Below are positions 447-46,225 of a stretch of 48,708 bases of DNA, in pieces. The DNA comes from Candidatus Azambacteria bacterium (GTDB taxonomy: Bacteria; Patescibacteriota; Minisyncoccia; UBA10092), in the NCBI GenBank assembly GCA_030646675.1, contig JAUSKX010000025.1, positions 1 through 48,708 on the forward strand, given 5' to 3'. The position numbers and the translations under genes are program-made. Every line of letters starts with the position of its first letter. The stretch's first letter is position 1. Under the pieces are notes generated by a model. It was given only the letters and a program-made list of their open reading frames with translations. It was not told the origin of the DNA and ran no database searches.

Positions 447-524
447 GCAATCTGTTATTTTGTCTCGCCCCCCTACTTATCCACAATTTACCCCACAAAA
501 CTTGTCCCGATATCGGGTTTTTTA

Positions 525-533
525 TGGTATAAT
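525..533 (+). promoter_or_regulatory. Candidate extended -10 promoter (TGgTATAAT) for the 546-11026 array
   Basis: TGGTATAAT lies 12 nt upstream of ATG 546, with AGGTGA (535-540) as a possible SD. The 12-bp palindrome CCCGATATCGGG (506-517) and a perfect DnaA box TTATCCACA (477-485) lie just upstream. Confidence 0.4.
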
Positions 534-545
534 TCAGGTGAAAAA

Positions 546-1328
546 ATGGCTTTAAAAAAATACCTGCCAATCGCGTTTACGATATCGGCCGGAGTCGCCT
601 TCGGGGTGTTTTTGTTTGCTCCCGTTTCCCAGACTCTTTACATAAAAAATAGTAATTCCTATCTCGCTTCCGCGGAGAATCAAATTGGCGACCTTTCAAA
701 TACTATTATTCCGCCTATCAATATCCCCAAAAATATTACTGAAAATTTCGCCGCTTCATTGACGCAAGAATTGATCTCTAAAAATTCTAACCCGCGAACC
801 GACTCATCCGGTCAGCCAGCGCTCGCCATGCCGGATATAAATACCATGGCGGAAGACTTTATCAAAAACGGCCTTTCCCAAGCTAATGAAAATATTTTAA
901 ATATTAAAACGCCGAATCTTAAGATTTCTTACGACAACAGTAAAACGGCAATTAAAAATTACTTTTCTGATTTTCAAACAATAATTAATAATAATCTAAA
1001 AACTGACGCTTCGCTTTTTTCCATTTTGGATGAAATAAATAAAAATAACGGTACGGGACTGGAAAAGCTTTTACCGATAATAGCGGCCCACGAAACGGCG
1101 GCCAATCAACTCGAAGAAAAGCCGGTCCCGTCAAACTTAAAAGATTTAATATCCGAAGAAATTAGACTATTAAGAATAACCGCCAATGTTTTTCGAGCAC
1201 TAACCAATATTGAGGGCGACCCATTGGGCGGTATGGCGGCTACCCGGCAATTCGGCGCCATAATGCAAAGTTGGAATGACTTGCAAATAAAAATGAACGC
1301 ATTTCTTAAAAAATTTAACCAGACATAA
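546..1328 (+). CDS. Hypothetical N-terminally membrane-anchored protein, first gene of the T4SS-like array
   Basis: 260-aa ORF with one N-terminal TM segment (LPIAFTISAGVAFGVFLFAPV) followed by a hydrophilic, helix-rich, Asn-rich domain. Its stop overlaps the next start (TAATG). I recognise no family. Confidence 0.6.
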   Translation: MALKKYLPIAFTISAGVAFGVFLFAPVSQTLYIKNSNSYLASAENQIGDLSNTIIPPINIPKNITENFAASLTQELISKNSNPRTDSSGQPALAMPDINTMAEDFIKNGLSQANENILNIKTPNLKISYDNSKTAIKNYFSDFQTIINNNLKTDASLFSILDEINKNNGTGLEKLLPIIAAHETAANQLEEKPVPSNLKDLISEEIRLLRITANVFRALTNIEGDPLGGMAATRQFGAIMQSWNDLQIKMNAFLKKFNQT

Positions 1329-2833
1329 TGATAAAATGTTTCGGTAAAAAATCGGCCATTATAGTCGCTATAACTCTGATACTTATTTTGGCCATGCCGA
1401 AACCGGCGCTTGCGCAATTGGCTACTGCCGAAGTCAATCCACTGGTATGGCTTTTCAATATTTTCTCGTCTTCTACCGGTAATGTTACCGCTGGAGCCAC
1501 CACTGCGCAGGTTGGGGAGACGCTTTTCGAATGGGCAGCTAAAATAGCCGTGCAAGCTTTAAAAAAACAATTACTCGACATGATAGTTGACCAGATTGTC
1601 AGTTGGATTCAGGGCGGCGGCGACCCTAAATTCATAACCGATTGGCCCGGATTTTTTAGAGACGCGGTTGACCAAGCCGGCGGAAAATTTATACAAAAAA
1701 TCGGATTGAGTCAGTTATGTTCGCCTTTCAAGCCTCTTTTGGGCGCAGGATTCATTCCAATTCCCACATTCACAGACCGCACTTCTTGTACCTTAAGTAA
1801 AATCGGAGTTAACATTGATGCTTTTCTCAAGGACTTCGAACAGGGAGGTTGGATAGCTTGGAGAGAAATGGTTTTGAAACCGCAAAATAACATCTACGGA
1901 GCGTACGCCTTGGCTTGGGACCAGTATGAAATCGAAAAATCTGCGGCGGCAAAATCCGCCGCCGCCGAAGCGCAAGCGGGTAAAGGATTTTTATCGGTAA
2001 AAAAATGCATAGAGTGGAGCGCTGAAGGACTCCAAGCCTGTATGGACCAGGGCGGAACAAGTTGGGAAGATTGCCAAAAGGTTGCCTGCATTAAAGAAAA
2101 AGATGTGACTCCCGGTTCCGTAGTCGGTGACATGGCGTCTAAAGCAGTTGGCGCGGACATTGATTTTATTGTCAATGCCGACGATTTGGCGGCCTATGTG
2201 GGAGCGATTACTAATGCCGTATTAAATAGAATGTTCGCCGAAGGTCTTAGCGGAATAAAAACATCTCTTTTCAGCGAAGGCTCAAGCGGGGGCGGTGGAG
2301 GAGCCGCCACTGCGCAAGCGCAATGCGCCCAGCTTTTGGGCACGGCAGCCTACAATGATTGTATAAGCGCCGTACAAATCGGTAAAGATATGCGAGAATT
2401 TCAAAAAGACACATTACTTTCTATGATAGACGAAGAACTGAAATATAGAAGCCAACTTTTGGGCGCCAAGCAAGCCACTTTAGCTATTTTAAACCAATCC
2501 ATCGGCGTTTTAACAGAGCTTGGAAATTGTCAGCACTATACCCCCCCATCAGAATTCCCGGAATTAGTTAAAATTCAGGGCGTCGCGTCAACCACTGTGG
2601 ACCAAGTTATCAAGACTCAATCCGATATTGTCGCCCTTCAGGTTAAACAGCAGGAGGTGAAAGCGGTGACAGATTTAACGCAAATCCCGGCCCTTTTTGC
2701 CAATATCTCTACCAATGTTAAACCGGCTCAGACTTACAGTTTAGTTTTAGCCGCCCAAGACGAAACCGTTCAAAAACAACAAGAATTGTCTAATTATCAA
2801 CAACAGTTAAATACCTGCCAAACAACGAATTAA
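1328..2833 (+). CDS. Secreted Cys-rich protein with a coiled-coil-like C-terminus, function unknown
   Basis: 501 aa. It has a signal peptide ending PALAQ. By my count there are 10 Cys in the mature part, plus a Gly/Ala linker (SSGGGGGAATAQAQ) and a Gln-rich heptad-like tail. It is translationally coupled on both sides. Confidence 0.65.
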   Translation: MIKCFGKKSAIIVAITLILILAMPKPALAQLATAEVNPLVWLFNIFSSSTGNVTAGATTAQVGETLFEWAAKIAVQALKKQLLDMIVDQIVSWIQGGGDPKFITDWPGFFRDAVDQAGGKFIQKIGLSQLCSPFKPLLGAGFIPIPTFTDRTSCTLSKIGVNIDAFLKDFEQGGWIAWREMVLKPQNNIYGAYALAWDQYEIEKSAAAKSAAAEAQAGKGFLSVKKCIEWSAEGLQACMDQGGTSWEDCQKVACIKEKDVTPGSVVGDMASKAVGADIDFIVNADDLAAYVGAITNAVLNRMFAEGLSGIKTSLFSEGSSGGGGGAATAQAQCAQLLGTAAYNDCISAVQIGKDMREFQKDTLLSMIDEELKYRSQLLGAKQATLAILNQSIGVLTELGNCQHYTPPSEFPELVKIQGVASTTVDQVIKTQSDIVALQVKQQEVKAVTDLTQIPALFANISTNVKPAQTYSLVLAAQDETVQKQQELSNYQQQLNTCQTTN

Positions 2834-2835
2834 TA

Positions 2836-4398
2836 ATGAGCTTTTTTATAAAAAATAAAAAATATTTCTATTCGCTCTTGTTGGTGGCGGTTGTTTTTAG
2901 TTTTGCGCTTTTACCGCCGCTGGCGGCTTTGGCGGAAGCCAATATTAAAGCTCCGGACGACTCTTCCAAAGCCGACGGCGGCGGCATAGTGTCGTGGCTC
3001 ACCGGAAAATCCATTCTCTTTGTTTCAAGCACCATCAGCTGGCTTTTCGGCGCTTTATTCGGAGTAATTCTTTATATAGAAGCGCAAATTATTGACTATG
3101 TTCTTTCGCCGGTTAATTTTCCTTTCGTCGGCGCCAATATAGTTAAAGTCGGCTGGGGCATTACGCGCGATTTGGCGAATATGTTTTTCATTTTGATTCT
3201 TCTGGTCATCGCTTTCGCCACTGTTTTGAAAATTGACTCCTATGCCATAAAACAACTTTGGTTTAAAACGCTCGTTGCCGCGCTCTTGATAAACTTCAGC
3301 CTGGTTATTGCCGGCTTGGTAATTGATTTCACTCAAGTTTTAACGACATTTTTCCTGAAGCAAGCGGTCGGCGGAAGCGGATTCGGAACAATCACTACCC
3401 GCCTGGCCTCCAGTATGCAAATTCTTAATTTCTATAATCCGGCGGCGCCCGGAAGTATTACCGGGGGCATAGCTCAATTTGGCGAAAGCGCCATAGCGGC
3501 GGTAATTGGAATAATATTGTCATTAGTAGGCCTCGTTATTACGGTCTTTGTTTTCGGCGCCACCGCCATATTTCTGGTTGTCAGAATTATCTGGATTTGG
3601 TTTTTGCTGATTGTCGCGCCCTTCGCCTGGATGCTTTGGATTTTGCCGGCGACCAGCGGCTATTTCAAACAATGGTGGGATAAGTTTATAAGCTGGACTT
3701 TTTTCGCCCCCGCTTACGCTTTTATGATTTATCTTTCGCTTTCCATTTTTGACGCTAATGGCAGATTCATGGCCGGCAATCTTCCCGCTAATTCAAGTGC
3801 AACTTGGGGAGTCGCGGTTCCGGGCATGTTAACAACCATCGCCATGCCGGCTGCTATCTTTCAATGGATTTTGGTTATCGCGCTGATGTTCGGCTCGCTG
3901 ATTGTGGCGAAATCAATTGGAGTTTTGCCGGGTAAATTAATCGACGCAGTAACCGGAGCAACAAAAGGCGCGGCAAGAGCAACGGCGCTTTCTGGTGTAA
4001 AAACATATGGTCACATAGCAACCGCTATTAGCAATATTGGAGCCAGCCGTCCGCCGGGTTTCGTGAGAACGATAACCGCCCCAATAAGAGGTATTGCTAC
4101 CGCCACGGGAATAAAAAGATTGGGTGCTTTGGCCACTGGCGCTAAAGGCGGCGTATACACGGCTCCTCTAAAATCCACTCCCAACAACCCATTAAAAGCC
4201 ATCACAAATGGCGCCGTAAAAGGTTCTGGCTTATGGAAAAATGATATTAAAGATTGGCAATGCGCATACGACCCAGCAATACAGGTTAGGTCAAAGAAAA
4301 AGCCAACATACGCATGCCCACAGGCACGAACAGTGCCTGGAAATCATCCCCAAACCGTTCCCCCAGGTGGCAATGATGTCGCCTGGATAGAAGTTTAA
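2836..4398 (+). CDS. Polytopic membrane protein, TrbL/VirB6-like
   Basis: 520 aa with an N-terminal signal/TM and then roughly 7-8 hydrophobic spans, followed by a Gly/Ala/Thr-rich tail ending in a 2-Cys segment. The architecture and the position upstream of VirB3/VirB4-like genes fit VirB6/TrbL. No sequence search was done. Confidence 0.55.
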   Translation: MSFFIKNKKYFYSLLLVAVVFSFALLPPLAALAEANIKAPDDSSKADGGGIVSWLTGKSILFVSSTISWLFGALFGVILYIEAQIIDYVLSPVNFPFVGANIVKVGWGITRDLANMFFILILLVIAFATVLKIDSYAIKQLWFKTLVAALLINFSLVIAGLVIDFTQVLTTFFLKQAVGGSGFGTITTRLASSMQILNFYNPAAPGSITGGIAQFGESAIAAVIGIILSLVGLVITVFVFGATAIFLVVRIIWIWFLLIVAPFAWMLWILPATSGYFKQWWDKFISWTFFAPAYAFMIYLSLSIFDANGRFMAGNLPANSSATWGVAVPGMLTTIAMPAAIFQWILVIALMFGSLIVAKSIGVLPGKLIDAVTGATKGAARATALSGVKTYGHIATAISNIGASRPPGFVRTITAPIRGIATATGIKRLGALATGAKGGVYTAPLKSTPNNPLKAITNGAVKGSGLWKNDIKDWQCAYDPAIQVRSKKKPTYACPQARTVPGNHPQTVPPGGNDVAWIEV

Positions 4399-4420
4399 TT
4401 TTAATTTGTAAAATCTAAAA

Positions 4421-5125
4421 ATGATATCTTTTAAAGACTTAACTGAGCAAAAAATATCGGAAAAATATAACGGCCTTTCACAAGGTCTTAAGGATGCCTT
4501 GTCGTCCGCAAATACTTCAGTTGTTATAGAAAATATTGCCGCAAAATATCAGCTGGACAAAGAAAAAACCGAAATGCTTGTTCAACTTGTCGGGTTGGTA
4601 ATTCTTGGATTCGCAGGCCTTGAAGATATGAAAAAAGAAATGAAAGAAACGATAGAGATTGATTCTAAAATTATTCCGTTAATTACAGATGAAATCCGTC
4701 AAAAAATATTTGCGCCGCTTATGAATTTTTTACCGAAAGTGCCGGTGCCTGCGGTGAGCAAAGTCGAACCGCCGACAGTTGCCACCGACCGATATCGCGA
4801 ACCCGCGGCGGGAAGTCCGGGAGTTGTTGATTTGAGAAACCAACCCAAGCCAGCGCCCGTTCCAGTAAAACCCTCTGTAGTTATCCCCCCCAGGCCGATT
4901 GCCCCGCCCGTGGTGAGTAAAATCGAACCACCGGCTCCTATTTTGCCTAAACCCATCCAGCGACCACCGTTGATAGAAGCTGAACCACATAAAGCTCCTA
5001 TTTCTATTCCCGTGCCCGCGCCGTTATCAAGAATGCCCCAAGTTATATTGAGGTCGCCCGGACTGCCGCCAACCGATTTGCCGCGCGATATTTTGGATTT
5101 AAGAAAAGATAAAGGAGAATTTTAA
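4421..5125 (+). CDS. Proline-rich single-TM protein
   Basis: 234 aa with one hydrophobic segment (LVQLVGLVILGFAGL). The C-terminal half is about one third Pro and carries a duplicated VSK(V/I)EPP motif (nt 4753-4773 and 4912-4932). The composition recalls TonB/VirB10 linkers, but only the composition. Confidence 0.55.
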   Translation: MISFKDLTEQKISEKYNGLSQGLKDALSSANTSVVIENIAAKYQLDKEKTEMLVQLVGLVILGFAGLEDMKKEMKETIEIDSKIIPLITDEIRQKIFAPLMNFLPKVPVPAVSKVEPPTVATDRYREPAAGSPGVVDLRNQPKPAPVPVKPSVVIPPRPIAPPVVSKIEPPAPILPKPIQRPPLIEAEPHKAPISIPVPAPLSRMPQVILRSPGLPPTDLPRDILDLRKDKGEF

Positions 5126-5553
5126 TGCAATATCAAGTGCCACAATTCGTTGATTTGGAAGACAGAATCATCGGGCCGCTTACGCTCAAGCAATTTTTAT
5201 ATTTGGCTTTTGCCGGAGCTTTTATTTTCGTTTTTTGGTTTTTATTAAACTTTTATGTGTGGCTCATTATTTCAATCCCTATCGCGGCGGCGGCGGCGGC
5301 TTTCGCTTTTTTAAAAATTAACGACCGGCCGTTTGTTTATTTTTTTCTTTCTTTCGTAAGATATTTTTCCAAGCCGAAACTTTACATTTTTTCCTCGAAA
5401 CCACCAGAATTGCCGTCCGTTGAGACGAGGGAACGAAGTCCGCTTCAACAAAATTCAACTTCGGCACCGGGACGGCTAACTCCCTCAAAATTAAAAGAAT
5501 TGGCGTTAAATTTAGACATCGGCTTCGACCGCTTAAATAACGAAACCCAATAA
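5125..5553 (+). CDS. PrgI/VirB3-like small two-TM protein
   Basis: The N-terminus MQYQVPQFVDLEDRIIGPLTLKQFLYLAFAG followed by two TM helices is the signature layout of PrgI-family (VirB3-like) proteins of Gram-positive-type T4SS. Its start overlaps the previous stop (TAATG). Confidence 0.6.
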   Translation: MQYQVPQFVDLEDRIIGPLTLKQFLYLAFAGAFIFVFWFLLNFYVWLIISIPIAAAAAAFAFLKINDRPFVYFFLSFVRYFSKPKLYIFSSKPPELPSVETRERSPLQQNSTSAPGRLTPSKLKELALNLDIGFDRLNNETQ

Positions 5554-5554
5554 A

Positions 5555-6211
5555 ATGCCCGAAGAACAAAAAATAATAAAAGGCCCGGCAACGCAGGACT
5601 TTGTGGATATAGAAAAAATAAAAGACGACATTGTTATTCTCAAGGACGGAGGACTTCGCGCGGTTTTGATGTGCGGTTCAAGAAATTTGGAACTTGAATC
5701 AATCGACAGCCAAAACGCCATCATCAGTGTTTATGCCGATTTTCTTAATTCCTTTGACTGGCCGCTTCAAATTGTCGTTCATTCAAGAAAATTGGATATT
5801 AATCCGTATTTGGCGTCGCTTGAGGAAAAATTAAAAGTTCAAGATAATGAACTTTTGAAAATTCAAACCGCCGAATATATTGCCTTTGTGAGAAGTTTCG
5901 TAACTCTTTCCGACATCATGATTAAAAGATTTTATACCGTCATTCCGTTTGACCCCATTGAGTCCAAGGGGGGTGAGCCGCTTGAAAAAATCGGTTCTCT
6001 CATTAAAATCGGCAAACAAAAAACTTCCGAGCTTTCCGAGGAAAAATTCCAGGAATATAAAAATCAATTATTACAACGAACCGAGCATATTATTTTATCC
6101 TTGGCGCATGTCGGCATCAAGGCGGCAATGTTGAGAACGGAAGAATTGATAGAATTGTATTATAATCTTTATAACCCCGAAGAATATGAACCCCATGCCA
6201 TTCAACAATAA
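5555..6211 (+). CDS. VirB4/ConE N-terminal-domain-like protein (separate ORF)
   Basis: 218 aa, soluble. The segment DIVILKDGGLRAVLMCGSRNLELES...FLNSFDWPLQIVVHSRKLD resembles the N-terminal region of Gram-positive VirB4 homologues. It overlaps the ATPase ORF by 26 nt in a +1 frame, and 218+585 aa is close to full-length VirB4. Confidence 0.45.
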   Translation: MPEEQKIIKGPATQDFVDIEKIKDDIVILKDGGLRAVLMCGSRNLELESIDSQNAIISVYADFLNSFDWPLQIVVHSRKLDINPYLASLEEKLKVQDNELLKIQTAEYIAFVRSFVTLSDIMIKRFYTVIPFDPIESKGGEPLEKIGSLIKIGKQKTSELSEEKFQEYKNQLLQRTEHIILSLAHVGIKAAMLRTEELIELYYNLYNPEEYEPHAIQQ

Positions 6212-7943
6212 TCAAGAAAACATCCGCAACGCCGCTTCCGCCCTGCGCGATATTTTGGCGCCGGCGGCCTTGGAAATCGCGCCCGGATTTTTGCGACTGA
6301 ATAAAAAACTGGCGCGCGTTTTCTTTGTTTTCAATTATCCGAGATTTTTGAACACCAACTGGTTTTCCGAAGTTATTAATTTGGATAAGACATTGGATAT
6401 AAGCTTCTACATTCATCCGATTGATACCGGTTCGGCGCTGAAGAATTTGAGAAAAAAAGTCGCCGAAGTTGAATCGGAACTGGCCATGCGCGATGAAAAA
6501 GGACTGGTTCGCGACCCGATGCTTGAAACCGCGTATCAGGACTTGGAAGATTTAAGGGACAAACTCCAGCAGGCGAGAGAAAAGTTTTTCAAATTCGGCC
6601 TCTATATAACAATATATGGAAATTCCCTTGAGGATTTGGATAAAATAGAAACATCATTGCGCTCTATTTTGGACGCGAAATTGGTGTATAGCAAAGCGGC
6701 GATATACCAGCAGGACAGCGGATTTGAATCCACATTGCCGCTGGCAACCGACAAGCTTGCTATAAACACGGCGATGAATTCAAGCCCCATAGCCGCCACT
6801 TTTCCCTTTGTTTCTTCAGATTTAACTTCCGACAGCGGTATTTTATACGGAATAAATCGGCATAATAATTCATTGATTCTTTTCGACAGATTTTCTCTTG
6901 AAAATGCCAACACCGTAATCTTCGGCAAATCCGGCGGCGGCAAATCCTACGCCGCGAAACTGGAAATTCTGCGCTCCTTGATGTTCGGGACCGATGTAGT
7001 AATCATCGACCCGGAAAATGAATATCAATATCTGACGGAAACTATCGGCGGCGCTTTCATAAAAATATCACTCACTTCCGAAAATCATCTGAATCCTTTT
7101 GACCTGCCTCCGGCCCAAGAAGGCGAGAACCCTGCCGATATTTTAAGAGCTAATATTATAAACTTAGTCGGCCTGTTGCGGTTGATGTTCGGCGGCTTGA
7201 CGCCGGAAGAAGACGCCATCATTGACAGCGCCGTAACTCAGACTTATGCCAGTCGCGATACCACCCCGACTATGTCCGATTTAAAAGTAGTTTTAGACAG
7301 TATGGCCGGAGCCGAATCGTTAAGCCTCCGTTTGGAAAAATACGTCACGGGTTCTTATGCCGGCTTTTTAAACAATCCCACCAATGTTGAAATTAAAAAC
7401 AAATTGGTCGACTTTAGCATAAGAGACATGGAGGAAGAATTAAGACCGGTGGCAATGTTTATAATTTTGCATTTCATTTGGAATCTGGTCCGTTCGGAAT
7501 TGAAAAAGAGAATTTTAATGGTTGACGAGGCGTGGTGGCTGATGAAAAACGACGACGGCGCCTCCTTTTTGTTCGGCATCGCCAAACGGGCGAGAAAATA
7601 TTTCCTGGGTGTGACAACCATCACGCAAGATGTAAATGATTTTTTGAATTCGTCTTACGGTAAGCCGATTTTGACCAATTCGTCGCTTCAATTTTTATTC
7701 AAACAATCGCCAACCAATATAGAAACCGTTCAAAAAACATTTAATCTGACTGATGAGGAAAAATTCCTGCTTCTTGAATCTGATGTCGGCGAGGGGCTGT
7801 TTTTTGCCGGTTCAAAACATGTGGCCATTAAAGTTATCGCGTCATACACGGAGGACCAAATTATCACTTCCGACCCGGCCCAGCTTTTACAAATTGAACA
7901 GGCAAAAAAAGAATTGGAAAAGGCGGAAGCCATGATTCCATGA
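6186..7943 (+). CDS. VirB4-type T4SS ATPase
   Basis: Walker A is VIFGKSGGGKSYAAK and Walker B is RILMVDEAWWL. The N-terminal block YPRFLNTNWFSEVI...LDISFYIHP and the FLGVTTITQD motif are typical of VirB4/TraE/PrgJ-like ATPases. Confidence 0.85.
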   Translation: MNPMPFNNNQENIRNAASALRDILAPAALEIAPGFLRLNKKLARVFFVFNYPRFLNTNWFSEVINLDKTLDISFYIHPIDTGSALKNLRKKVAEVESELAMRDEKGLVRDPMLETAYQDLEDLRDKLQQAREKFFKFGLYITIYGNSLEDLDKIETSLRSILDAKLVYSKAAIYQQDSGFESTLPLATDKLAINTAMNSSPIAATFPFVSSDLTSDSGILYGINRHNNSLILFDRFSLENANTVIFGKSGGGKSYAAKLEILRSLMFGTDVVIIDPENEYQYLTETIGGAFIKISLTSENHLNPFDLPPAQEGENPADILRANIINLVGLLRLMFGGLTPEEDAIIDSAVTQTYASRDTTPTMSDLKVVLDSMAGAESLSLRLEKYVTGSYAGFLNNPTNVEIKNKLVDFSIRDMEEELRPVAMFIILHFIWNLVRSELKKRILMVDEAWWLMKNDDGASFLFGIAKRARKYFLGVTTITQDVNDFLNSSYGKPILTNSSLQFLFKQSPTNIETVQKTFNLTDEEKFLLLESDVGEGLFFAGSKHVAIKVIASYTEDQIITSDPAQLLQIEQAKKELEKAEAMIP

Positions 7944-7955
7944 TAAAATAAACAT

Positions 7956-8390
7956 ATGCCAATAGCTGAAACGTTTAAAAACAAAATAACCGAAAAGTCC
8001 AAAAAAACCGAAAATGCCGAAGGGGCTTCTATTGACTCAATGGAATGGCTGATACTTTTTTTGGCCGCCGGTTATATTGATGTTCTTTTTATTCTTATAA
8101 CAATTATTGGTTTTATACCCTTCGTCGGCCAAGTGACCTATGTCATTTTGAATCCAATTTTAAACATGATAGCCACTGGTATTTTTTGGTTTTATTTGCA
8201 GAATAAGGGCCTCGGCGGCTATTGGTGGTTAGCCTTCGGCGGAGGATTGGCGGGATTAGTTCCTGTCGTCAATTGGTTCAGTTGGATAGTGTCGGTATTC
8301 GTTCTTTACGGCTTGGTAAAGGCAGAAAAAATCCCACTGGCCGGCGAAGCTATAAAAAAAGCCGCTGAAACGGCGTCAAAAATAAAATGA
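7956..8390 (+). CDS. Small 4-TM membrane protein, unknown function
   Basis: 144 aa with four hydrophobic spans and a basic, helical C-terminal tail. It has an ATGA overlap with the next gene. Confidence 0.55.
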   Translation: MPIAETFKNKITEKSKKTENAEGASIDSMEWLILFLAAGYIDVLFILITIIGFIPFVGQVTYVILNPILNMIATGIFWFYLQNKGLGGYWWLAFGGGLAGLVPVVNWFSWIVSVFVLYGLVKAEKIPLAGEAIKKAAETASKIK

Positions 8391-9424
8391 AAAAGCAAAA
8401 CAAAAATAATAATATAAAGTTTTATTTTTATTTTAGCTGTATAGTGTTACTGCCCAGTATTGCTAATGCACAATTTACTTTACCAACAAATCAACTACCG
8501 AATTTGAATATGAAACCAACTCTTTCCCTGACGATTAACACCCAGGCGCCGCTTCCAAGCGCCTTTGTTTCCGCGACCGCCAACCTTTCGGGAATAACAA
8601 ATGTCAGTAATCCCAGTTTTTCCTGGTTTTTGAACGGCGTGGCGCAAAAAGGGGCGTCCGGAGTAAATAAAAACACCTTCGCTTTTCAAGTTGGTAATTT
8701 GGGCGCTGTTTACAAAATCAGCCTTAACGCGTCAACACCGAATGGCGATAATTTTTCCGATTCAATTTCTGTAACCGTCAGCGATTTTGATTTAACCTGG
8801 GATGCCAATTCCCAAGCGCCCGCTCTATATAAAGGAAAATTACTGCCGACCCAAAAGTCAGTTTTGAACATTTCGGCCTTGCCGTTTGTTTATTCGCCGG
8901 GCACCAAAACACAATTAACAAATAGTAATTTAATTTATAACTGGTACGTTGATGATAAATTTTCAGCCGGCAGTTCCGGGGCGGGTAAATCAAATTTAAT
9001 CTTAACCGTGAATGATTACGCCGGCGCCAGTAAAAACATACGGCTTGAAATTAAAACTTCCGACGGCGCGGTATCTATAAGCAAGAGCGTAGAAATTCCC
9101 ATTGTTGGGCCCCAAGTATTTATCCATTTAACTGATTCTAAAACAGGCTTTCCATATGGGGTTGCTTTGAAAAATTTGACCGTGGGGCCGATTAGTTTAA
9201 ATTTTACGGCTCAAAATTATTTTTTCAACGCGACGCCCGATAATTTGCGCTGGCAATGGCTCATAGGCGACAAAGAGGTGGACAGTGGAAGCGAAAAACC
9301 ATGGCTCGCCTCATTAAATCTCGCCAATATAGGCCCGCTGTTTACACAAATTCAAGCCATAGTTAAAAGTTCAACCAACGAGCTGGAGACTGCCGGAGCA
9401 ACAATTAATCTGGAAGTGAAATAG
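8387..9424 (+). CDS. Secreted beta-rich protein with three internal repeats (Ig/PKD-like guess)
   Basis: 345 aa with a signal peptide ending SIANAQ. Three roughly 90-100-aa repeats each open with an aromatic-x-W motif (FSWFLNG, YNWYVDD, WQWLIGD) and end in alternating beta-strand-like patterns. Confidence 0.6.
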   Translation: MKKQNKNNNIKFYFYFSCIVLLPSIANAQFTLPTNQLPNLNMKPTLSLTINTQAPLPSAFVSATANLSGITNVSNPSFSWFLNGVAQKGASGVNKNTFAFQVGNLGAVYKISLNASTPNGDNFSDSISVTVSDFDLTWDANSQAPALYKGKLLPTQKSVLNISALPFVYSPGTKTQLTNSNLIYNWYVDDKFSAGSSGAGKSNLILTVNDYAGASKNIRLEIKTSDGAVSISKSVEIPIVGPQVFIHLTDSKTGFPYGVALKNLTVGPISLNFTAQNYFFNATPDNLRWQWLIGDKEVDSGSEKPWLASLNLANIGPLFTQIQAIVKSSTNELETAGATINLEVK

Positions 9425-9435
9425 CGACACACAAC

Positions 9436-10044
9436 ATGAAACACATAACACGTAACACAAAACTGATAATATTAATGGCTATTTTGTTTTTTGTTTCATG
9501 TTTTATGTTTTATGATTCAACGGCGGCGCAAGTTCAGCTTGAAACCGGGTTGCCGAACATCCCCGGCAACCGGCTTGATGCGGGCAAGGAATTGCCCCAA
9601 TATATCAATTATCTTTTCATTTTCGGATTAGGCGCCATTACTATTCTGGCGCTGGCACAAATGATGTCCGGGGGCATCCAATATATCCTCGCCGCCGGGA
9701 ATGTTGCCCAAACCGCGGAAGCAAAAAACACCATCCAACAAGCCCTTCTCGGCTTGGGATTATTATTGGCTTCTTATCTTCTTTTAAACACTATTAATCC
9801 CGACCTGGTAAATCTAAGAAATCCCAACCTCACTCCCGCGCAATTTAAAGGAAGTACAGCTGTGCCACCCAACACGATTGGCGGCGGAGGGGAAAGTTAC
9901 CAATGGACAATAATACCAATGAATAAATACTGTAAGGATGTCTTAGGGGCAGGTTGGGTTGGAGTTGGCGGCAATCTCTGTCAACCCCCCATACCTAGCT
10001 TATCCCATGATTGTTGCGGTTATTTTCCAAACAATCCAAAATAA
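9436..10044 (+). CDS. T4SS pilin-like protein (VirB2/TrbC-type) with a Cys-rich C-terminal extension
   Basis: Long signal peptide, then TM1 (INYLFIFGLGAITILALAQMM), the loop AAGNVAQTAEAKNTIQQA, and TM2 ending LLNTINPDLV. This is the layout I associate with the CPR T4SS-pilin family. The extra 70-aa tail carries 4 Cys. Confidence 0.55.
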   Translation: MKHITRNTKLIILMAILFFVSCFMFYDSTAAQVQLETGLPNIPGNRLDAGKELPQYINYLFIFGLGAITILALAQMMSGGIQYILAAGNVAQTAEAKNTIQQALLGLGLLLASYLLLNTINPDLVNLRNPNLTPAQFKGSTAVPPNTIGGGGESYQWTIIPMNKYCKDVLGAGWVGVGGNLCQPPIPSLSHDCCGYFPNNPK

Positions 10045-10045
10045 T

Positions 10046-11026
10046 ATGTCTAAAAAGACTTTTTACATAATTTTATCAATACTGGCCGGACTTGTTATAG
10101 TCGGCGGTTTGATTTGGTATTTCTTTTTTAAGCCATCAACACCGGCGCCAACCGATAGCGCTGGATTTACTTTACCGGGCCAAGAAATAACCGCTGGATT
10201 GGAACCAATCAGCGAAGGGCCCGCTGTCTCGGCGCATTTTGTTGGCGATATTCTTTTATTCTATGATTTTTCCGGCCAACTCTGGCAATTAAACAGCGGA
10301 GAATTGAAACCATCTCTATCGGCCCAACAGACGGCCGAAAACCCTAAGCCGGGGACTAAATCAATCGCTTTTTCGCCCGACGGCAAAAAAATTGCTTATT
10401 ATATTTCTGATTTAAAAAACAATTCATTATTTATTAGCGACGCCGACGGCAAGAATCAAAAAACTTTGTTCCAAAACTTTCCATTAAGGGATATTATTTT
10501 GAGCTGGCCCAAAACAAATCAAATAGCGATTACCTCAAAACCAAGTGGTCTTGTGGCCGGGGGATTGTGGACATTTGATATTATCACTTTAAAATTAACT
10601 AAAATCCTTGATAATTTACCCGGACTGGAGGTGATTTTTTCGTCAAGTGGAGACAATTTCATCTATTCTTTTGTCGACCCAAATGGTCAAAATCCGATTT
10701 TAATGGCTTTCAAAAAAGGCGTCTCCAAAAATCAGAACATTTCAACCATGGTTGATAAATGCGCATGGGCCGGCGACTCTATAAATATATATTGCGCCGT
10801 TCCAAAATCATGGCCCGATTCGGTCGTTTTGCCGGACGATTACTATAAGAGCGCCATATCAACCATCGACGACATTTGGAAAATTAATGCCGAAACCGGC
10901 GCGAAAAATGTAATTTTTGAAAATGTGGGGGACGCATCCAACCTTGCGGCAAGTGGGGGTGAAGATAATTTGATTTTTATTCTAAAAAACAGCGGGTTTT
11001 TGTATAAGCTAAAACTAACCCCCTAA
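10046..11026 (+). CDS. Membrane-anchored TolB-like (PD40-type) beta-propeller protein
   Basis: I chose the start at ATG 10046 (MSKKTFYIILSILAGLVIVGGLIWYFF is a TM anchor) rather than the ORF-track 9959, which overlaps the pilin gene. IAFSPDGKKIAYYISD...LFISDADGKNQKTL are PD40/TolB-like blades. Confidence 0.6.
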   Translation: MSKKTFYIILSILAGLVIVGGLIWYFFFKPSTPAPTDSAGFTLPGQEITAGLEPISEGPAVSAHFVGDILLFYDFSGQLWQLNSGELKPSLSAQQTAENPKPGTKSIAFSPDGKKIAYYISDLKNNSLFISDADGKNQKTLFQNFPLRDIILSWPKTNQIAITSKPSGLVAGGLWTFDIITLKLTKILDNLPGLEVIFSSSGDNFIYSFVDPNGQNPILMAFKKGVSKNQNISTMVDKCAWAGDSINIYCAVPKSWPDSVVLPDDYYKSAISTIDDIWKINAETGAKNVIFENVGDASNLAASGGEDNLIFILKNSGFLYKLKLTP

Positions 11027-12526: not shown

Positions 12527-12661
12527 TTAAACTGATAAACGCTGTCTTTTTTTGCGGCGGCGTCTCTCAATTGTTTTTCGTCCGCCGGGACTCTTCATCC
12601 TCTTTAAAAATCCGTGCTTTTTCTTTCTTTTACCCTTCTTGGGTTTAAATGTTTTACTCAT
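12527..12661 (-). CDS. rpmH: 50S ribosomal protein L34 (below the ORF-track size cutoff)
   Basis: My hand translation of the minus strand gives MSKTFKPKKGKRKKKHGFLKRMKSPGGRKTIERRRRKKRQRLSV (44 aa). This is the classic L34 pattern (KxHGFxxRM...GRxxxxRRRxKxR), divergent from dnaA. Confidence 0.85.
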   Translation of the reverse strand: MSKTFKPKKGKRKKKHGFLKRMKSPGGRKTIERRRRKKRQRLSV

Positions 12662-23195: not shown

Positions 23196-23335
23196 AATTT
23201 AATCTTTATTAGGGAACATACCGCCGTTAAATCGGCTCCGTCAACTTTTCTGTGGATAAGTCAGGTAGTAGAACTTTGACCGCCTATGGCAATTACATTT
23301 TCGCTACAGCGAAAATGTTGTCAAAGTTTCACTAC

Positions 23336-42868: not shown

Positions 42869-44002
42869 ATGGCGCGTGTAAAACCTGATGTAGAAACATT
42901 TGCGAGAATAAAAGTTGTCGGTGTCGGCGGCAGCGGCGGCAATGCCGTTACCAGAATGTTTGACGCGCAAATTAAAGGCGTTGATTTTATCGCGATTAAT
43001 ACCGACGCTCAAGACCTTCACCATGTTAAAGCGCAAACCAAGATTCACATTGGAAAAAATTTAACCAGGGGACTGGGCGCCGGAATGAATCCGGATATAG
43101 GCCGGCAGGCGGCGGAAGAAAATCGCGACGAAATTCAAGATGCTCTGAAAGGAGCCGATTTGGTTTTTATCACCTGCGGTTTGGGCGGCGGTACCGGTTC
43201 CGGAGCTTCTTCGGTTATAGCCGATGCCGCTCATGATGTTGGTGCTTTGGTGGTCGCCGTTGTTACCAAGCCGTTTTCTTTTGAAGGAAAAAAACGCTCA
43301 ACTATCGCGGAAGAAGCTTTAATGTCGCTTCGCGACCGCGTCGATACTTTAATTACGATTCCCAATGATAAAGTTTTGAATTTAATTGATAAAAATACTT
43401 CCATTCTCGGAGCATTTATGATTATTGACGATATTTTGAAACAAGGAGTTCAGGGCATTGCCGATTTAATTACATATCCCGGAATCGTTAATGTTGATTT
43501 TGCCGATATAAAAGCAATTATGGCGTCCGCCGGTTCGGCGCTGATGGGTATTGGAAGAGCTACCGGGGAAGGCCGCGCGGTTACGGCCGCTAAAGCGGCA
43601 ATTAGTTCGCCGCTTTTGGATATTTCAATTGACGGAGCGAGCGGTGTTTTGTTTAATGTTTCCGGAGGAATTGATTTGAGCATGGCCGATGTTAATGACG
43701 CCGCCAAGGTAATAACCGAATCTATAGACCCTGATGCCAGGATTATTTTTGGAGCGACTCATGATAGCCGCCTTAAAAAGGGCGAGGTCAGAGTCACGGT
43801 AATCGCGACAGGATTTGGAACCGGTAAGTACGGCAATGGAAATACAAATAGTAACTCCGGCGGCAATCCGATTACGGTTCCGGTTGTCGCGAGTATCAAA
43901 AAGCCGTCGGTAAATATTGAAATAATAGACGAGGAAGAGGAATGGGATACTCCGGCTTTTCTGCGAAGAAAAAAAGATAAAGATAGGAATGAAGAAAAGT
44001 AA
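42869..44002 (+). CDS. ftsZ: Cell division GTPase FtsZ
   Basis: It has VVGVGGSGGNAV, the tubulin signature GGGTGSGA, and NVDFADI. The C-terminal peptide is DTPAFLRRK. Confidence 0.97.
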   Translation: MARVKPDVETFARIKVVGVGGSGGNAVTRMFDAQIKGVDFIAINTDAQDLHHVKAQTKIHIGKNLTRGLGAGMNPDIGRQAAEENRDEIQDALKGADLVFITCGLGGGTGSGASSVIADAAHDVGALVVAVVTKPFSFEGKKRSTIAEEALMSLRDRVDTLITIPNDKVLNLIDKNTSILGAFMIIDDILKQGVQGIADLITYPGIVNVDFADIKAIMASAGSALMGIGRATGEGRAVTAAKAAISSPLLDISIDGASGVLFNVSGGIDLSMADVNDAAKVITESIDPDARIIFGATHDSRLKKGEVRVTVIATGFGTGKYGNGNTNSNSGGNPITVPVVASIKKPSVNIEIIDEEEEWDTPAFLRRKKDKDRNEEK

Positions 44003-45368
44003 AATTTTCGCCCTCATTTTAACGAGTTTTGTTGGTGGCATATTTTTATATTCAATAACAAAAACTCCGCCGCTTATAATCGGCGGAGTTTTTGTTATGG
44101 CTCTCTGTATTTTGGTTAACGCCTTTCTATCCGCCAGAGGCGGATCCGCCTTGGGCGGAAAAAATAAAATAATTTTCGGAGTTTGTATTTTGTTTGTCGG
44201 TCTCGGCCTATGGCGCAGTATCGAAGTTTTCAGCCGCAGCGATGAAGCGGCCGCTAAAAATTTTCCCAAAGAAAAAATAGTTTTTTCCGGAAAAGTAATT
44301 GAAGAGCCGGACCGGCGGACTGATTTTTCGCAGTATGTCGTAGAAAACGAAGCATACGGCCGCGTTCTTGTAAAAACCGACCTTTATCCGGAATATTTTT
44401 ATGGCGACAATTTGAAATTAAATGGAAAAATTTCCACGCCGGAATCAAGCGCGGATTTTGATTATAAAACATATTTGGCAAAAGACGGCATTTTTTTAAT
44501 AAGCAAATATCCCGGCATTACTTTAATTGAGCGCCCGGCAAGGCAAGATTTTTACGGCAGCCTTCTTAATGTAAAAAAATCTTTTATTGAAACAATTAAT
44601 AAGCTTTTTCCGGAGCCGCTCGCGTCTTTTTTAGCGGCTCTTTTGGTTGGCGCCAAAAAAACACTTCCCGCTGATTTAACGGATGCATTTAATAGAACGG
44701 GAACAAGCCATATAGTGGCAATTTCCGGCTACAACATTTCCATTATCAGCGCGATGCTTTTGAATCTTCTGGGATATTTATTTTTGCCGCGGAAATTTAT
44801 TTTTTGGTTAGTTGGTGTCGTCTTGGTTTTGTTTACTTTGATTGCGGGAGCGGAGGCTTCGGTGGTGCGCGCGGCCATTATGGGCGGATTGCTTATTTTA
44901 GCCAAACGCGAAGGCAGGAATTACCGGCTCACCAACGCGATTATTTTCGCCGGAGCGGCGATGCTTTTTTTCAATCCGTATTTGTTGCGCTACGATGCCG
45001 GATTTCAGCTTTCATTTTTAGCGACCTTCGGCCTGGTATATCTGGTGCCGTATTTTGAAAAATGGTTTTCCCGCTTGCCAAATTTTTTATCCTTTCGCGA
45101 TAATTTGGCGGCCACATTATCGGCGCAGGCCATGACTCTGCCGATTATATTTTTCAGTTTTGGCAGAGTTTCTTTAATCGCTCCGCTCGCGAATGTTTTA
45201 ATCTTGCCTTTCATCCCTCTGACCATGCTTTTCGGTTTTTTAGCCGGAATTGCCGGATTTATTTCGTTGGGTCTCGCCTATGTTTTTGTTTTTCCAACCT
45301 GGTTCCTACTTTCTTTCCAGATTTGGCTTATTAAATTATTAAGCTTACTCCCATTCGCATCTATATGA
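43989..45368 (+). CDS. comEC: ComEC/Rec2 DNA-uptake channel, N-terminal OB/DUF4131-like plus competence (polytopic) domains only
   Basis: 459 aa. After the first TMs comes an extracytoplasmic segment (FSGKVIEEPDRR...VLVKT...GDNLKLNGKI). This is followed by the segment FNRTGTSHIVAISGYNIS and multiple TMs typical of the competence domain. Confidence 0.8.
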   Translation: MKKSKIFALILTSFVGGIFLYSITKTPPLIIGGVFVMALCILVNAFLSARGGSALGGKNKIIFGVCILFVGLGLWRSIEVFSRSDEAAAKNFPKEKIVFSGKVIEEPDRRTDFSQYVVENEAYGRVLVKTDLYPEYFYGDNLKLNGKISTPESSADFDYKTYLAKDGIFLISKYPGITLIERPARQDFYGSLLNVKKSFIETINKLFPEPLASFLAALLVGAKKTLPADLTDAFNRTGTSHIVAISGYNISIISAMLLNLLGYLFLPRKFIFWLVGVVLVLFTLIAGAEASVVRAAIMGGLLILAKREGRNYRLTNAIIFAGAAMLFFNPYLLRYDAGFQLSFLATFGLVYLVPYFEKWFSRLPNFLSFRDNLAATLSAQAMTLPIIFFSFGRVSLIAPLANVLILPFIPLTMLFGFLAGIAGFISLGLAYVFVFPTWFLLSFQIWLIKLLSLLPFASI

Positions 45369-46225
45369 GCATAAAAAGAAAAATAATAATTTCATCCGGA
45401 CTTTTATTAGTCACGTTGGCGGTATGGATTTTGGTTTTAATTCCAAAAACAGGGCAAATTTTGGAAACGATTTTTTTGGATGTCGGCCAGGGCGATTCTA
45501 TTTTAATAAAAACGCCCCAGAATCAGAGCATTTTAATTGATGGCGGGCCGAATAATAAAGTTTTGGAAAAACTGGGCAAATATATTTTTTCACTCCCGAA
45601 AAAAATTGACGTTGTGATTTTGACCCATCCTCACGCCGACCATGTTACGGGTCTTATTGAAGTTTTGAAAAGATATAATGTCGGCTTAATTGTTATAAAT
45701 GGCGTTTATTTAAAAACAGATAATTACAACCAATTTCTAAACGCCGCCAAAAACAACGGCGCCAAAGTTTTAATCGCAGAGGCCGGTGAGGCCATTCATT
45801 TCGGCAAAGATTTGGAATTTGATATTATCGCGGCGCCAGGCGCCGGCGCGACAAATGACAATAATGCCAATGAAACGTCAATTGTCGGCAAGCTGATTTA
45901 TAAAGATTTTTCAATCATGTTTATGGGCGACGCGCCCGCGAAAATAGAAAATAAAATTATGGCTTACGGCGAGGGATTAAAATCGGATATTCTGAAAATC
46001 GGCCATCACGGCTCCAAATATTCATCGTTTATGAATTTTTTAAGCGCGGTCGCCCCGAAAGCGGGGATTATTGAAGTGGCCGAAAAAAATATTTATAATC
46101 TTCCTTCGCCGGCGGCTTTAAGCCGTTTCGCGATGTCGGGAATAAATATTTTTGAAACCGGCAAAAAAGGCGACATTAAAATCCTAAGCGACGGCTTCAC
46201 CGCGAGCATTTTTACTGAACATTGA
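45365..46225 (+). CDS. ComEC-type metallo-beta-lactamase domain protein (separate ORF with its own TM anchor)
   Basis: It has an ATGA overlap with the previous ORF and an N-terminal TM. The MBL motifs are FLDVGQGDS, HPHADHVTG and HHGSKYS. Confidence 0.8.
   Translation: MSIKRKIIISSGLLLVTLAVWILVLIPKTGQILETIFLDVGQGDSILIKTPQNQSILIDGGPNNKVLEKLGKYIFSLPKKIDVVILTHPHADHVTGLIEVLKRYNVGLIVINGVYLKTDNYNQFLNAAKNNGAKVLIAEAGEAIHFGKDLEFDIIAAPGAGATNDNNANETSIVGKLIYKDFSIMFMGDAPAKIENKIMAYGEGLKSDILKIGHHGSKYSSFMNFLSAVAPKAGIIEVAEKNIYNLPSPAALSRFAMSGINIFETGKKGDIKILSDGFTASIFTEH

Follow-up and report, generated by a model that had tools for sequence, protein, structure and literature searches.

The 48,708-bp contig analysed here (the whole of it is called the window), from a metagenome-assembled genome of Candidatus Azambacteria (Patescibacteria, class Paceibacteria), carries an array of 11 genes (g01-g11) on the forward strand at positions 546-11026. 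This array is very probably the Paceibacteria version of the chromosomal type IV secretion system (T4SS) of the Patescibacteria clade, a non-conjugative machine that probably acts at contact with the host. The system is already known from papers published in 2023-2025, which include close relatives of this genome; the present analysis concerns the form that it takes in this lineage, its place in the chromosome, and the partner proteins and upstream region that accompany it.

Organization of the array

In the list of open reading frames (ORFs) with their translations, positions 546-11026 hold 11 co-directional, tightly packed ORFs, all of them intact (Table 1). The successive inter-gene gaps are -1, 2, 22, -1, 1, -26, 12, -4, 11, and 1 nucleotides (nt), with TAATG overlaps at 1326-1330 and 5123-5127 and an ATGA overlap at 8387-8390, so that the array is a translationally coupled 11-gene operon. 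Its GC composition is uniform with that of the window and shows no anomaly. An earlier reading of this DNA (hereafter the original prediction) described the same co-directional unit with the same limits and the same TAATG and ATGA coupling, and the translations contain all the motifs that it reported (the PrgI N-terminus MQYQVPQFVDLEDRIIGPL and, in VirB4, GKSGGGKS as Walker A and ILMVDEAWW as Walker B). Its count of 12 genes, however, is one too high: a twelfth gene is ruled out because the gaps are too small to hold one, and the parts that it itemised also sum to 11.

Core components of the secretion system

The VirB4-family ATPase encoded by g07 is of the Gram-positive mating-pair formation (MPF) type MPF-FATA/CD1110. 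It scores 387 bits against the NCBIfam model NF045971 (conju_CD1110), above the cut-off of 325, over profile positions 172-734 of 752, and it matches P-loop_TraG, AAA_10, and DUF87 in Pfam. The one solved structure related to it in sequence is the C-domain of a Thermoanaerobacter VirB4 (4AG5, 7e-52), and among its 120 closest homologues all those with a source name are from Azambacteria, Parcubacteria, or Patescibacteria. The NCBIfam models for Gram-negative VirB4, TrbE, and TraC stay far under their cut-offs; the two MPF-T VirB4 models, whose cut-offs are 957 and 1050 bits, give 37.8 and 38.6 bits, and the archaeal models CedB (NF041017) and CedD give 42.6 bits against 700 and 22.6 bits against 600, respectively.

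The N-terminal domain of VirB4 is encoded as a separate polypeptide by g06, a TrsD-like protein. It matches the NCBIfam TrsD/TraD model (NF041427) weakly (2.5e-4) and aligns, again weakly, with the first ~80-200 positions of the NCBIfam VirB4 models, and its orthologue in the closest relative (locus L001, described below) bears the Pfam family PF26593 (TraC-like). The split of VirB4 is genuine, because the counterpart of g06 is a separate ORF in 80/83 related loci and its overlap with the VirB4 gene is conserved (26 nt in the window, 23 nt in L001). A sequencing frameshift was considered as the cause and rejected, since the two-ORF layout and the overlap are kept across lineages. The original prediction had treated this ORF as an orphan; it is a TrsD-type protein, a kind already reported to be the most abundant partner of VirB4 in Patescibacteria (PMC12102498).

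The small membrane protein g05 exceeds the gathering score of PrgI (PF12666; 35.8 bits against 27), and a counterpart is found directly 5' of the TrsD-VirB4 pair in 77/83 loci. A counterpart of the polytopic protein g03 occupies the same position in 58/83 loci (tblastn). Among 49 positional orthologues of g03 (19-55% identical), 15 match TrbL (PF04610; best 1.3e-7) and one matches TrbL_4, and this transitive homology, taken with the transmembrane (TM) topology, supports a VirB6/TrbL-like identity for g03. A profile search of the VirB6-like family against the PDB returned merely coiled-coil and low-complexity noise. Most orthologues have 650-1085 amino acids (aa), and the counterpart in the closest relative has 751 aa; g03 has only 520 aa and appears to be short of most of the C-terminal hydrophilic extension.

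For g10, 35/41 orthologues match T4SS_pilin (PF18895; best 8e-14) and seven match TrbC/VirB2, while g10 itself gives a weak match to the Mbov_0395 pilin-like model of NCBIfam; its identity as a VirB2-type pilin is supported through these orthologues. The C-terminal extension of g10 is ~80 aa long and contains four of the five cysteines of the protein, and the family consensus has a matching conserved C...C...CxG pattern; we know of no such extension in classical VirB2 pilins.

The hidden Markov model (HMM) matches above cut-off confirm the VirB4 and PrgI calls of the original prediction, and its VirB6- and VirB2-like calls gain support by way of orthologues. The HMM searches therefore did not leave the VirB2-, VirB3-, and VirB6-like calls without T4SS affinity.

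Genomic context and synteny

In the window the array is flanked by rsmA (also named ksgA) on its 5' side and by jag-yidC-rnpA-rpmH-dnaA-dnaN on its 3' side, where dnaA, dnaN, and the jag-yidC-rnpA-rpmH genes were identified by their translations and by Pfam marks on orthologues. In the closest relative, Azambacteria GCA_001774215.1 (L001; VirB4 84% identical), a near-identical cassette with all 11 genes lies between rsmA and jag-yidC-rnpA-dnaA-dnaN-PBP-tyrS.

A scan of relatives with one genome per GTDB species yielded 80 loci, from Azam-, Giovannoni-, Kaiser-, Vogel-, Sungi-, and Terrybacteria and other Paceibacterota. Judged from ORF maps, gene order, lengths, and TM topology are alike almost everywhere in these ~80 species-level genomes. 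The shared cassette consists, in order, of proteins of ~330 aa (1 TM), ~500 aa (1 TM), 650-1085 aa (7-10 TM), ~250 aa (Pro-rich), ~140 aa (PrgI), ~212 aa (TrsD), ~607 aa (VirB4), ~160 aa (2-4 TM), ~330 aa (1 TM), 150-400 aa (the pilin, with three hydrophobic segments), and ~405 aa (1 TM). The flanks are conserved as well. Of the 50 loci with 8 kb or more of downstream flank, 47 have dnaA downstream of the array and on its strand; yidC, found in 55 loci, is always downstream and on the other strand; and rsmA lies upstream in 31/45 loci with enough upstream flank. From this conserved synteny it follows that the array is a core operon passed on by vertical inheritance, not the remnant of an integrative and conjugative element (ICE) or plasmid, and a mobile element is rejected on the same grounds. 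This agrees with the original prediction, which had described a core chromosomal locus; the neighbourhood beside yidC-rnpA-rpmH-dnaA is indeed kept in related genomes.

Outside the array, a Pfam scan covered 21 further ORFs (one of 153 aa and, beyond 15.5 kb, all those of at least 250 aa), and no VirD4, relaxase, or integrase was found among them. Everything that the scan identified was of a housekeeping kind: PBP1, TyrRS, YebC, RuvB, a PilB-type ATPase, PolA, Fpg, HolA, ThyX, ParA, ParB, RelA/SpoT, TopA, DprA, HisRS, FtsA, FtsZ, and a split ComEC (Competence and metallo-beta-lactamase ORFs). None of the 11 array proteins has a Pfam or NCBIfam match to VirB8, VirB9, or VirB10. The sole tRNAs in the window (Rfam) are at 31.2 and 47.2 kb, and neither flanks the array. 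Conjugation hallmarks, already reported missing beside the array by the original prediction, are thus absent from the ORFs scanned in the window, and the split comEC, dprA, and pilB-type ATPase genes that it listed are all present.

The cumulative GC skew has its minimum at ~11-13 kb. This fits an origin beside dnaA, and the array, on the forward strand, would therefore be head-on to the leftward fork; jag-yidC-rnpA-rpmH, unlike the array, would be co-directional with that fork. The head-on orientation had been noted by the original prediction; it fits the GC-skew minimum and, given the synteny, is a conserved trait of the lineage.

Table 1. Positions of the array genes and associated features in the window
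Feature	Position	Strand	Description
DnaA-box-like 9-mer	477-485	+	Perfect TTATCCACA; 61-69 nt upstream of the g01 start codon and 42 nt upstream of the extended -10
Extended -10	525-533	+	TGgTATAAT; ends 12 nt before ATG 546
g01	546-1328	+	260 aa; N-terminal TM anchor (9-27); predicted all-helical bundle at residues ~64-259
g02	1328-2833	+	501 aa; predicted secreted or TM-anchored; 11 Cys; conserved N-domain; C-terminal helical bundle
g03	2836-4398	+	520 aa; polytopic, 7-8 TM; putative VirB6/TrbL-like channel protein
g04	4421-5125	+	234 aa; N-terminal helical domain of ~100 aa, then Pro-rich region (15% Pro); DRYREP at residues 123-128
g05	5125-5553	+	PrgI/VirB3-type small membrane protein
g06	5555-6211	+	TrsD-like protein; VirB4 N-terminal domain as separate polypeptide
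g07	6186-7943	+	VirB4-family ATPase, Gram-positive MPF-FATA/CD1110 type; Walker A GKSGGGKS, Walker B MVDEAWW
g08	7956-8390	+	144 aa; 3-4 TM segments
g09	8387-9424	+	345 aa; secreted, signal peptide; predicted repeated Ig-like (immunoglobulin-like) beta-sandwich domains
g10	9436-10044	+	Putative VirB2-type T4SS pilin; signal peptide, two TM helices, Cys-rich C-terminal extension
g11	10046-11026	+	TM-anchored TolB-like beta-propeller
rpmH	12527-12661	-	
Second TTATCCACA copy	23251-23259	-	Oriented with the PilB-type ATPase gene, 56-64 nt before its start codon

Relation to known systems

In the Saccharibacterium Southlakia epibionticum, transposon sequencing (Tn-seq) found the T4SS cluster SEML1_0006-0019 to be essential for epibiotic growth (Wang et al. 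2023 Cell, PMC10633639); this cluster resembles Gram-positive conjugative systems, contains essential pilin genes, and has no recognisable coupling or relaxase proteins (PMC10633639). A survey of 3,035 Patescibacteria genomes (Quinonero-Coronel et al. 2025, PMC12102498) detected VirB4 in 2,417, and these proteins form a clade nested in MPF-FATA; PrgI/VirB3, VirB6, and VirB2 pilins are encoded near virB4, and relaxases occur in just 103 of the genomes, rarely near virB4 (PMC12102498). The virB4 neighbours in Paceibacteria include dnaA, dnaN, rnpA, ksgA, and rpmH, which the authors of the survey read as a gene-dosage effect (PMC12102498). The survey dataset lists 34 Azambacteria assemblies including GCA_001774215.1 (PMC12102498), the closest relative of this genome, which is marked 'Yes' in a column read here as VirB4 present. 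The T4SSs of Patescibacteria are treated as an established new branch in a 2025 FEMS review (PMC12857230). A 2024 PNAS perspective calls their role 'completely unknown' and already proposes ComB-like nucleotide acquisition (PMC11665869). In methanogen-parasitising Patescibacteria, T4SS pilins are among the most highly expressed genes of unknown function (PMC10936435). The system itself, the missing relaxase, the pilins, the origin-proximal position, and the idea of import resembling that of Helicobacter pylori are consequently all in print, and the novelty implied by the original prediction does not stand.

The array agrees with the published Patescibacteria-clade T4SS in its FATA-type VirB4, adjacent TrsD-like protein, PrgI/VirB3, putative VirB6/TrbL, and VirB2-type pilin, in the absence of a relaxase and type IV coupling protein (T4CP) from the cluster, and in its position beside dnaA, dnaN, rnpA, ksgA, and rpmH, as in other Paceibacteria. 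With the Southlakia cluster it shares the core order VirB6 ... PrgI - TrsD (hypothetical there) - VirB4; however, Southlakia has a six-gene pilin array where there is one pilin gene here, and its NTF2/VirB8-like protein and adjacent peptidase/lysozyme are not recognised in the window cassette. The remaining genes (g01, g02, g04, g08, g09, and g11) are Paceibacteria-specific, occupy fixed positions, and are drawn unannotated in published maps.

Among the Gram-positive MPF-FATA systems (pGO1/pSK41 Trs, pCF10 Prg, CTn2 CD1110), the resemblance extends to a VirB4 that passes the CD1110 equivalog cut-off, a PrgI protein, a polytopic VirB6-like protein, and a monoderm envelope without VirB7, VirB9, and VirB10, and pGO1 likewise has TrsD as a separate N-domain protein. 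The differences are that a coupling protein, relaxase, oriT, PrgK/TraG-type hydrolase, and PrgL/VirB8-like protein were not detected in the window, that the window cassette has a VirB2-type pilin, which to our knowledge Gram-positive systems lack, and that it is a chromosomal core operon and not part of a plasmid or ICE.

The ComB system of H. pylori is also a chromosomal T4SS subset with VirB2-, VirB3-, VirB4-, and VirB6-like parts and without a relaxase or coupling protein. ComB, however, belongs to the MPF-T, diderm type and includes ComB7-10 (VirB7-10). No ComB7-10 counterparts were found in the array, the VirB4 lineage differs, and the window holds a separate set of type IV pilus (T4P), ComEC, and DprA genes. 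The ComB analogy drawn by the original prediction therefore cannot be taken as membership, since the VirB4 is of the MPF-FATA and not the MPF-T type and no VirB7-10 was found. The archaeal Ced system (CedA/CedB) likewise uses a VirB4/HerA-type ATPase without a relaxase, but the CedB and CedD scores of g07 are at superfamily level only and no CedA-like protein was identified.

Probable role of the machine

The system would derive from Gram-positive MPF-FATA conjugation machinery whose link to DNA mobilisation was lost, and would be passed on vertically, its core operon lying next to the origin of replication. By analogy with established T4SSs, a VirB4 hexamer together with TrsD would use PrgI/VirB3 to dock on the VirB6 channel of the single membrane, and ATP hydrolysis would power the extraction of pilin and the building of a wall-spanning pilus or conduit. 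Its extracellular part, facing the host, is probably formed or decorated by the secreted proteins: the Ig-repeat protein g09, the propeller g11, g02, and g01. The analogy with the cultivated epibiont suggests that the machine is probably located at the site of contact between epibiont and host and needed for host-dependent growth, most probably as a protein exporter or contact conduit and not in conjugation.

Several points weigh against this interpretation. The evidence for essentiality comes from one Saccharibacterium only, and none of it from Paceibacteria. VirD4-like genes are common in Patescibacteria, far from virB4 (PMC12102498), and the contig represents 48.7 kb of the genome, so that a VirD4 or relaxase gene may lie elsewhere in it. 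No VirB8-like, VirB1-like (cell-wall hydrolase), or VirB5-like part was recognised in the cassette by Pfam, NCBIfam, or Foldseek. The clade placement of g07 rests on nearest homologues and HMMs and not on a tree. Lastly, g03 itself has no Pfam, NCBIfam, or PDB sequence match, and g10 itself scores 20.7 bits against T4SS_pilin, under the gathering score of 26.6.

Among the alternatives, a protein export or contact conduit ranks first, an adhesion-only pilus and an import system come next, and conjugation is last. According to the second of these readings, the array would build only a VirB2-type pilus with adhesins for host attachment and would translocate no substrate. The pilin is conserved, secreted partners contain Ig-like, propeller, and sometimes carbohydrate-binding-type domains, no coupling protein is encoded nearby, and the high expression of pilins in parasitic relatives was read as adhesion-related (PMC10936435). 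However, T4P already provide adhesion and motility in Saccharibacteria (PMC10633639, PMC12857230), and the VirB6 channel and VirB4 are kept as in translocating systems, though both also serve pilus biogenesis. Adhesion alone is considered unlikely; sequence by itself does not separate it from protein export or a contact conduit, nor these from the import of host material.

A ComB- or Ced-like system, in which the T4SS takes up DNA, nucleotides, or host material to make good missing biosynthesis, is given little credence; an import role was among the hypotheses of the original prediction. It would accord with the absence of a relaxase and T4CP among the window ORFs scanned, with the weak CedB and CedD matches, which arise via the common VirB4-type ATPase fold, and with the lack of nucleotide synthesis in Patescibacteria, for which the T4SS has been named, citing H. 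pylori ComB, as a candidate acquisition route (PMC11665869). The type of the VirB4, the failure to find VirB7-10, and a CedB score far under its cut-off argue against it, as does the conventional competence set (PilB-type ATPase, split ComEC, DprA) that the window already has. In S. epibionticum, the one relative studied genetically, deletion of comEC abolished competence and left viability intact, and the T4SS is essential (PMC12857230). ComEC-dependent transformation therefore does not account for the requirement for the T4SS, and this result splits it from classical transformation; import independent of ComEC is still compatible with it.

It is highly improbable that the array is a decayed ICE or an ordinary conjugative system whose relaxase, coupling protein, and oriT are encoded in another part of the genome. 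VirD4-like genes do occur commonly elsewhere in Patescibacteria genomes (PMC12102498) and only 48.7 kb was inspected, but dozens of species have the array at the identical place between rsmA and yidC-dnaA, the scanned ORFs include no integrase or relaxase, no tRNA flanks the array, composition is uniform, relaxases are scarce in the phylum and rarely near virB4 (PMC12102498), and all 11 ORFs are intact and tightly coupled.

Paceibacteria-specific partner proteins

The original prediction left seven proteins without assignment. One of them is removed from that list by the identification of g06 as TrsD, and the other six remain without a T4SS role, several of them now with fold-level assignments.

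The best-conserved unassigned partner is g09, present in 64/83 loci. Its profile matches two Ig-like domains of T4 Hoc (4e-5), and its orthologues match BiPBP_C (9), Cadherin-like (4), Ig_3 (3), and PKD. A BLAST self-comparison of g09 revealed no internal repeats, so that the repeat architecture rests on the HMM matches to Ig-like domains. For g11, which likely starts at ATG 10046, one base past the g10 stop (the longest ORF runs from TTG 9959), the family profile matches TolB structures in the PDB (1e-11), and PD40 is found in 13/51 orthologues and weakly (E 0.008) in the window protein. The TolB-like propeller proposed earlier is thus confirmed at family level. A protein of ~400 aa with one TM segment occupies the last position in most loci.

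With its profile, g02 recovers at least 6,097 representative clusters (50% identity) at E<=1e-3, and 3,431 at E<=1e-30; judged by these matches, it belongs to a very large unannotated family. There is no Pfam or NCBIfam match to g02, a PDB profile search gave noise, and a Pfam scan of 27 orthologues found no common family. The AlphaFold2 (AF2) model of g02 is confident only at residues 330-501, the helical bundle; the conserved N-domain is not confidently folded, and a Foldseek search of the PDB produced no match under E 0.1. Some orthologues carry extra Ig-like, F5/8-type-C, or CHB_HEX domains, and these additions suggest that g02 is extracellular or surface-exposed.

Sequence homologues of g01 are confined to Azambacteria-like lineages: 148 were found, none with a recorded Pfam domain and with source names that read only 'hypothetical'. 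Its AF2 model has a mean predicted local distance difference test (pLDDT) score of 73.5; within the helical bundle, most 10-residue blocks reach 80-96. Foldseek found nothing in the PDB under E 0.1, hence no VirB5 or VirB8 match. Positional analogues of ~330 aa with one TM segment occur in most related loci; those in other lineages bear a calcium-binding-type DxDxDG repeat, which g01 does not have. Assignment of g01 or g02 as a VirB5-, VirB8-, or VirB1-like protein is unsupported, no Foldseek match having fallen under E 0.1 for either.

No family match in Pfam or NCBIfam was obtained for g04. The sequence DPYRE(P) or a close variant lies within the last few residues in 33/45 positional orthologues of g04, and this DPYREP tail looks like a short linear docking motif. 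In g04 of the window and of L001, the DRYREP is internal (~4787-4804 in the window) and is followed by an extra Pro-rich stretch of ~105 aa. Finally, g08 has no Pfam match, and among 46 positional analogues no family matches more than one; a protein of 100-280 aa with 2-4 TM segments comes after VirB4 in most loci.

Upstream region and a DnaA-box-like site

A perfect DnaA-box-like 9-mer, TTATCCACA, precedes the extended -10 element in front of g01. Two perfect copies occur in the window, compared with ~0.37 expected by chance, and the second precedes the PilB-type ATPase gene and is immediately followed by a TTGACG/TATGTT promoter-like pair. Across related loci, 13/33 first-gene positions have a box with no more than one mismatch at -85..-25, against 15/810 for other ORFs (Fisher p ~1e-12, a value that overstates independence because the loci are phylogenetically related). 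Loci with a box include L001, L006, L019, and L066. The recurring layout is a box, 21-42 nt, TATAAT, 9-12 nt (in the closest relatives; up to ~30 nt in others), and the start codon; the sequence around the box is not conserved, unlike the spacing pattern of box, TATAAT, and start. The distance from the -10 to the start codon is 9-12 nt in L001, L006, and L019 and longer in some others, and g01 is probably translated from a leaderless or near-leaderless mRNA, with a transcript predicted to begin ~5-6 nt before ATG 546.

The placement of the box suggests direct control of the operon by DnaA or a factor of similar specificity, and the second copy suggests DnaA-linked control of both host-interaction machines (the T4SS and the PilB-type pilus). 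A sigma-70 and terminator scan of 1-13 kb was uninformative, and the extended -10 was missed owing to its long spacer. A literature search that combined the DnaA box with Patescibacteria or the candidate phyla radiation found none with both among the papers listed, and the terms 'DnaA box', 'promoter', 'orientation', and 'head-on' are all absent from the 2025 survey (PMC12102498). A bolder proposal is regarded as unlikely. The array would be a pilus-bearing monoderm T4SS that serves as a host-tapping conduit and takes in macromolecules or building blocks of the host instead of exporting DNA; a conserved DnaA box in a near-leaderless promoter would tie its expression, and that of the type IV pilus ATPase, directly to the replication initiator DnaA; and the unannotated partners, the g02 family among them, would make up a host-contact module of a new kind.

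The spacer between rsmA and g01 (297-546, ~250 nt) is long for so compact a genome. It contains an inverted repeat at ~349-380 (GCATGTTAT...ATAAACATGC) and a GC-rich hairpin at ~414-429 (CCCCGCgctgGCGGGG), and Rfam recognised no known RNA in these 250 nt.

Other genes of the window

Two further features concern the surrounding genes. ComEC is encoded by two ORFs with a 4-nt overlap, at 43989-45368 (DUF4131 and Competence) and 45365-46225 (metallo-beta-lactamase). The ThyX ORF (29595-30929) encodes 444 aa, about twice the usual length, with two matched Thy1 stretches, which suggests that ThyX is tandem-duplicated or fused.

Significance

The window itself holds no new kind of system. The analysis makes a modest addition to the published record: the map of a fixed 11-gene Paceibacteria cassette, the large g02 family, the DPYREP motif of g04, the DnaA-box lead, and fold-level assignments for several partners hitherto without annotation. 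Compared with the gene-dosage idea in print, the DnaA-box-like promoter element provides a more specific link to regulation, and one that can be tested. Patescibacteria, which may make up a quarter of bacterial diversity, are host-dependent, and the T4SS is among the few machines shown to be essential for such a lifestyle, in one cultivated relative.

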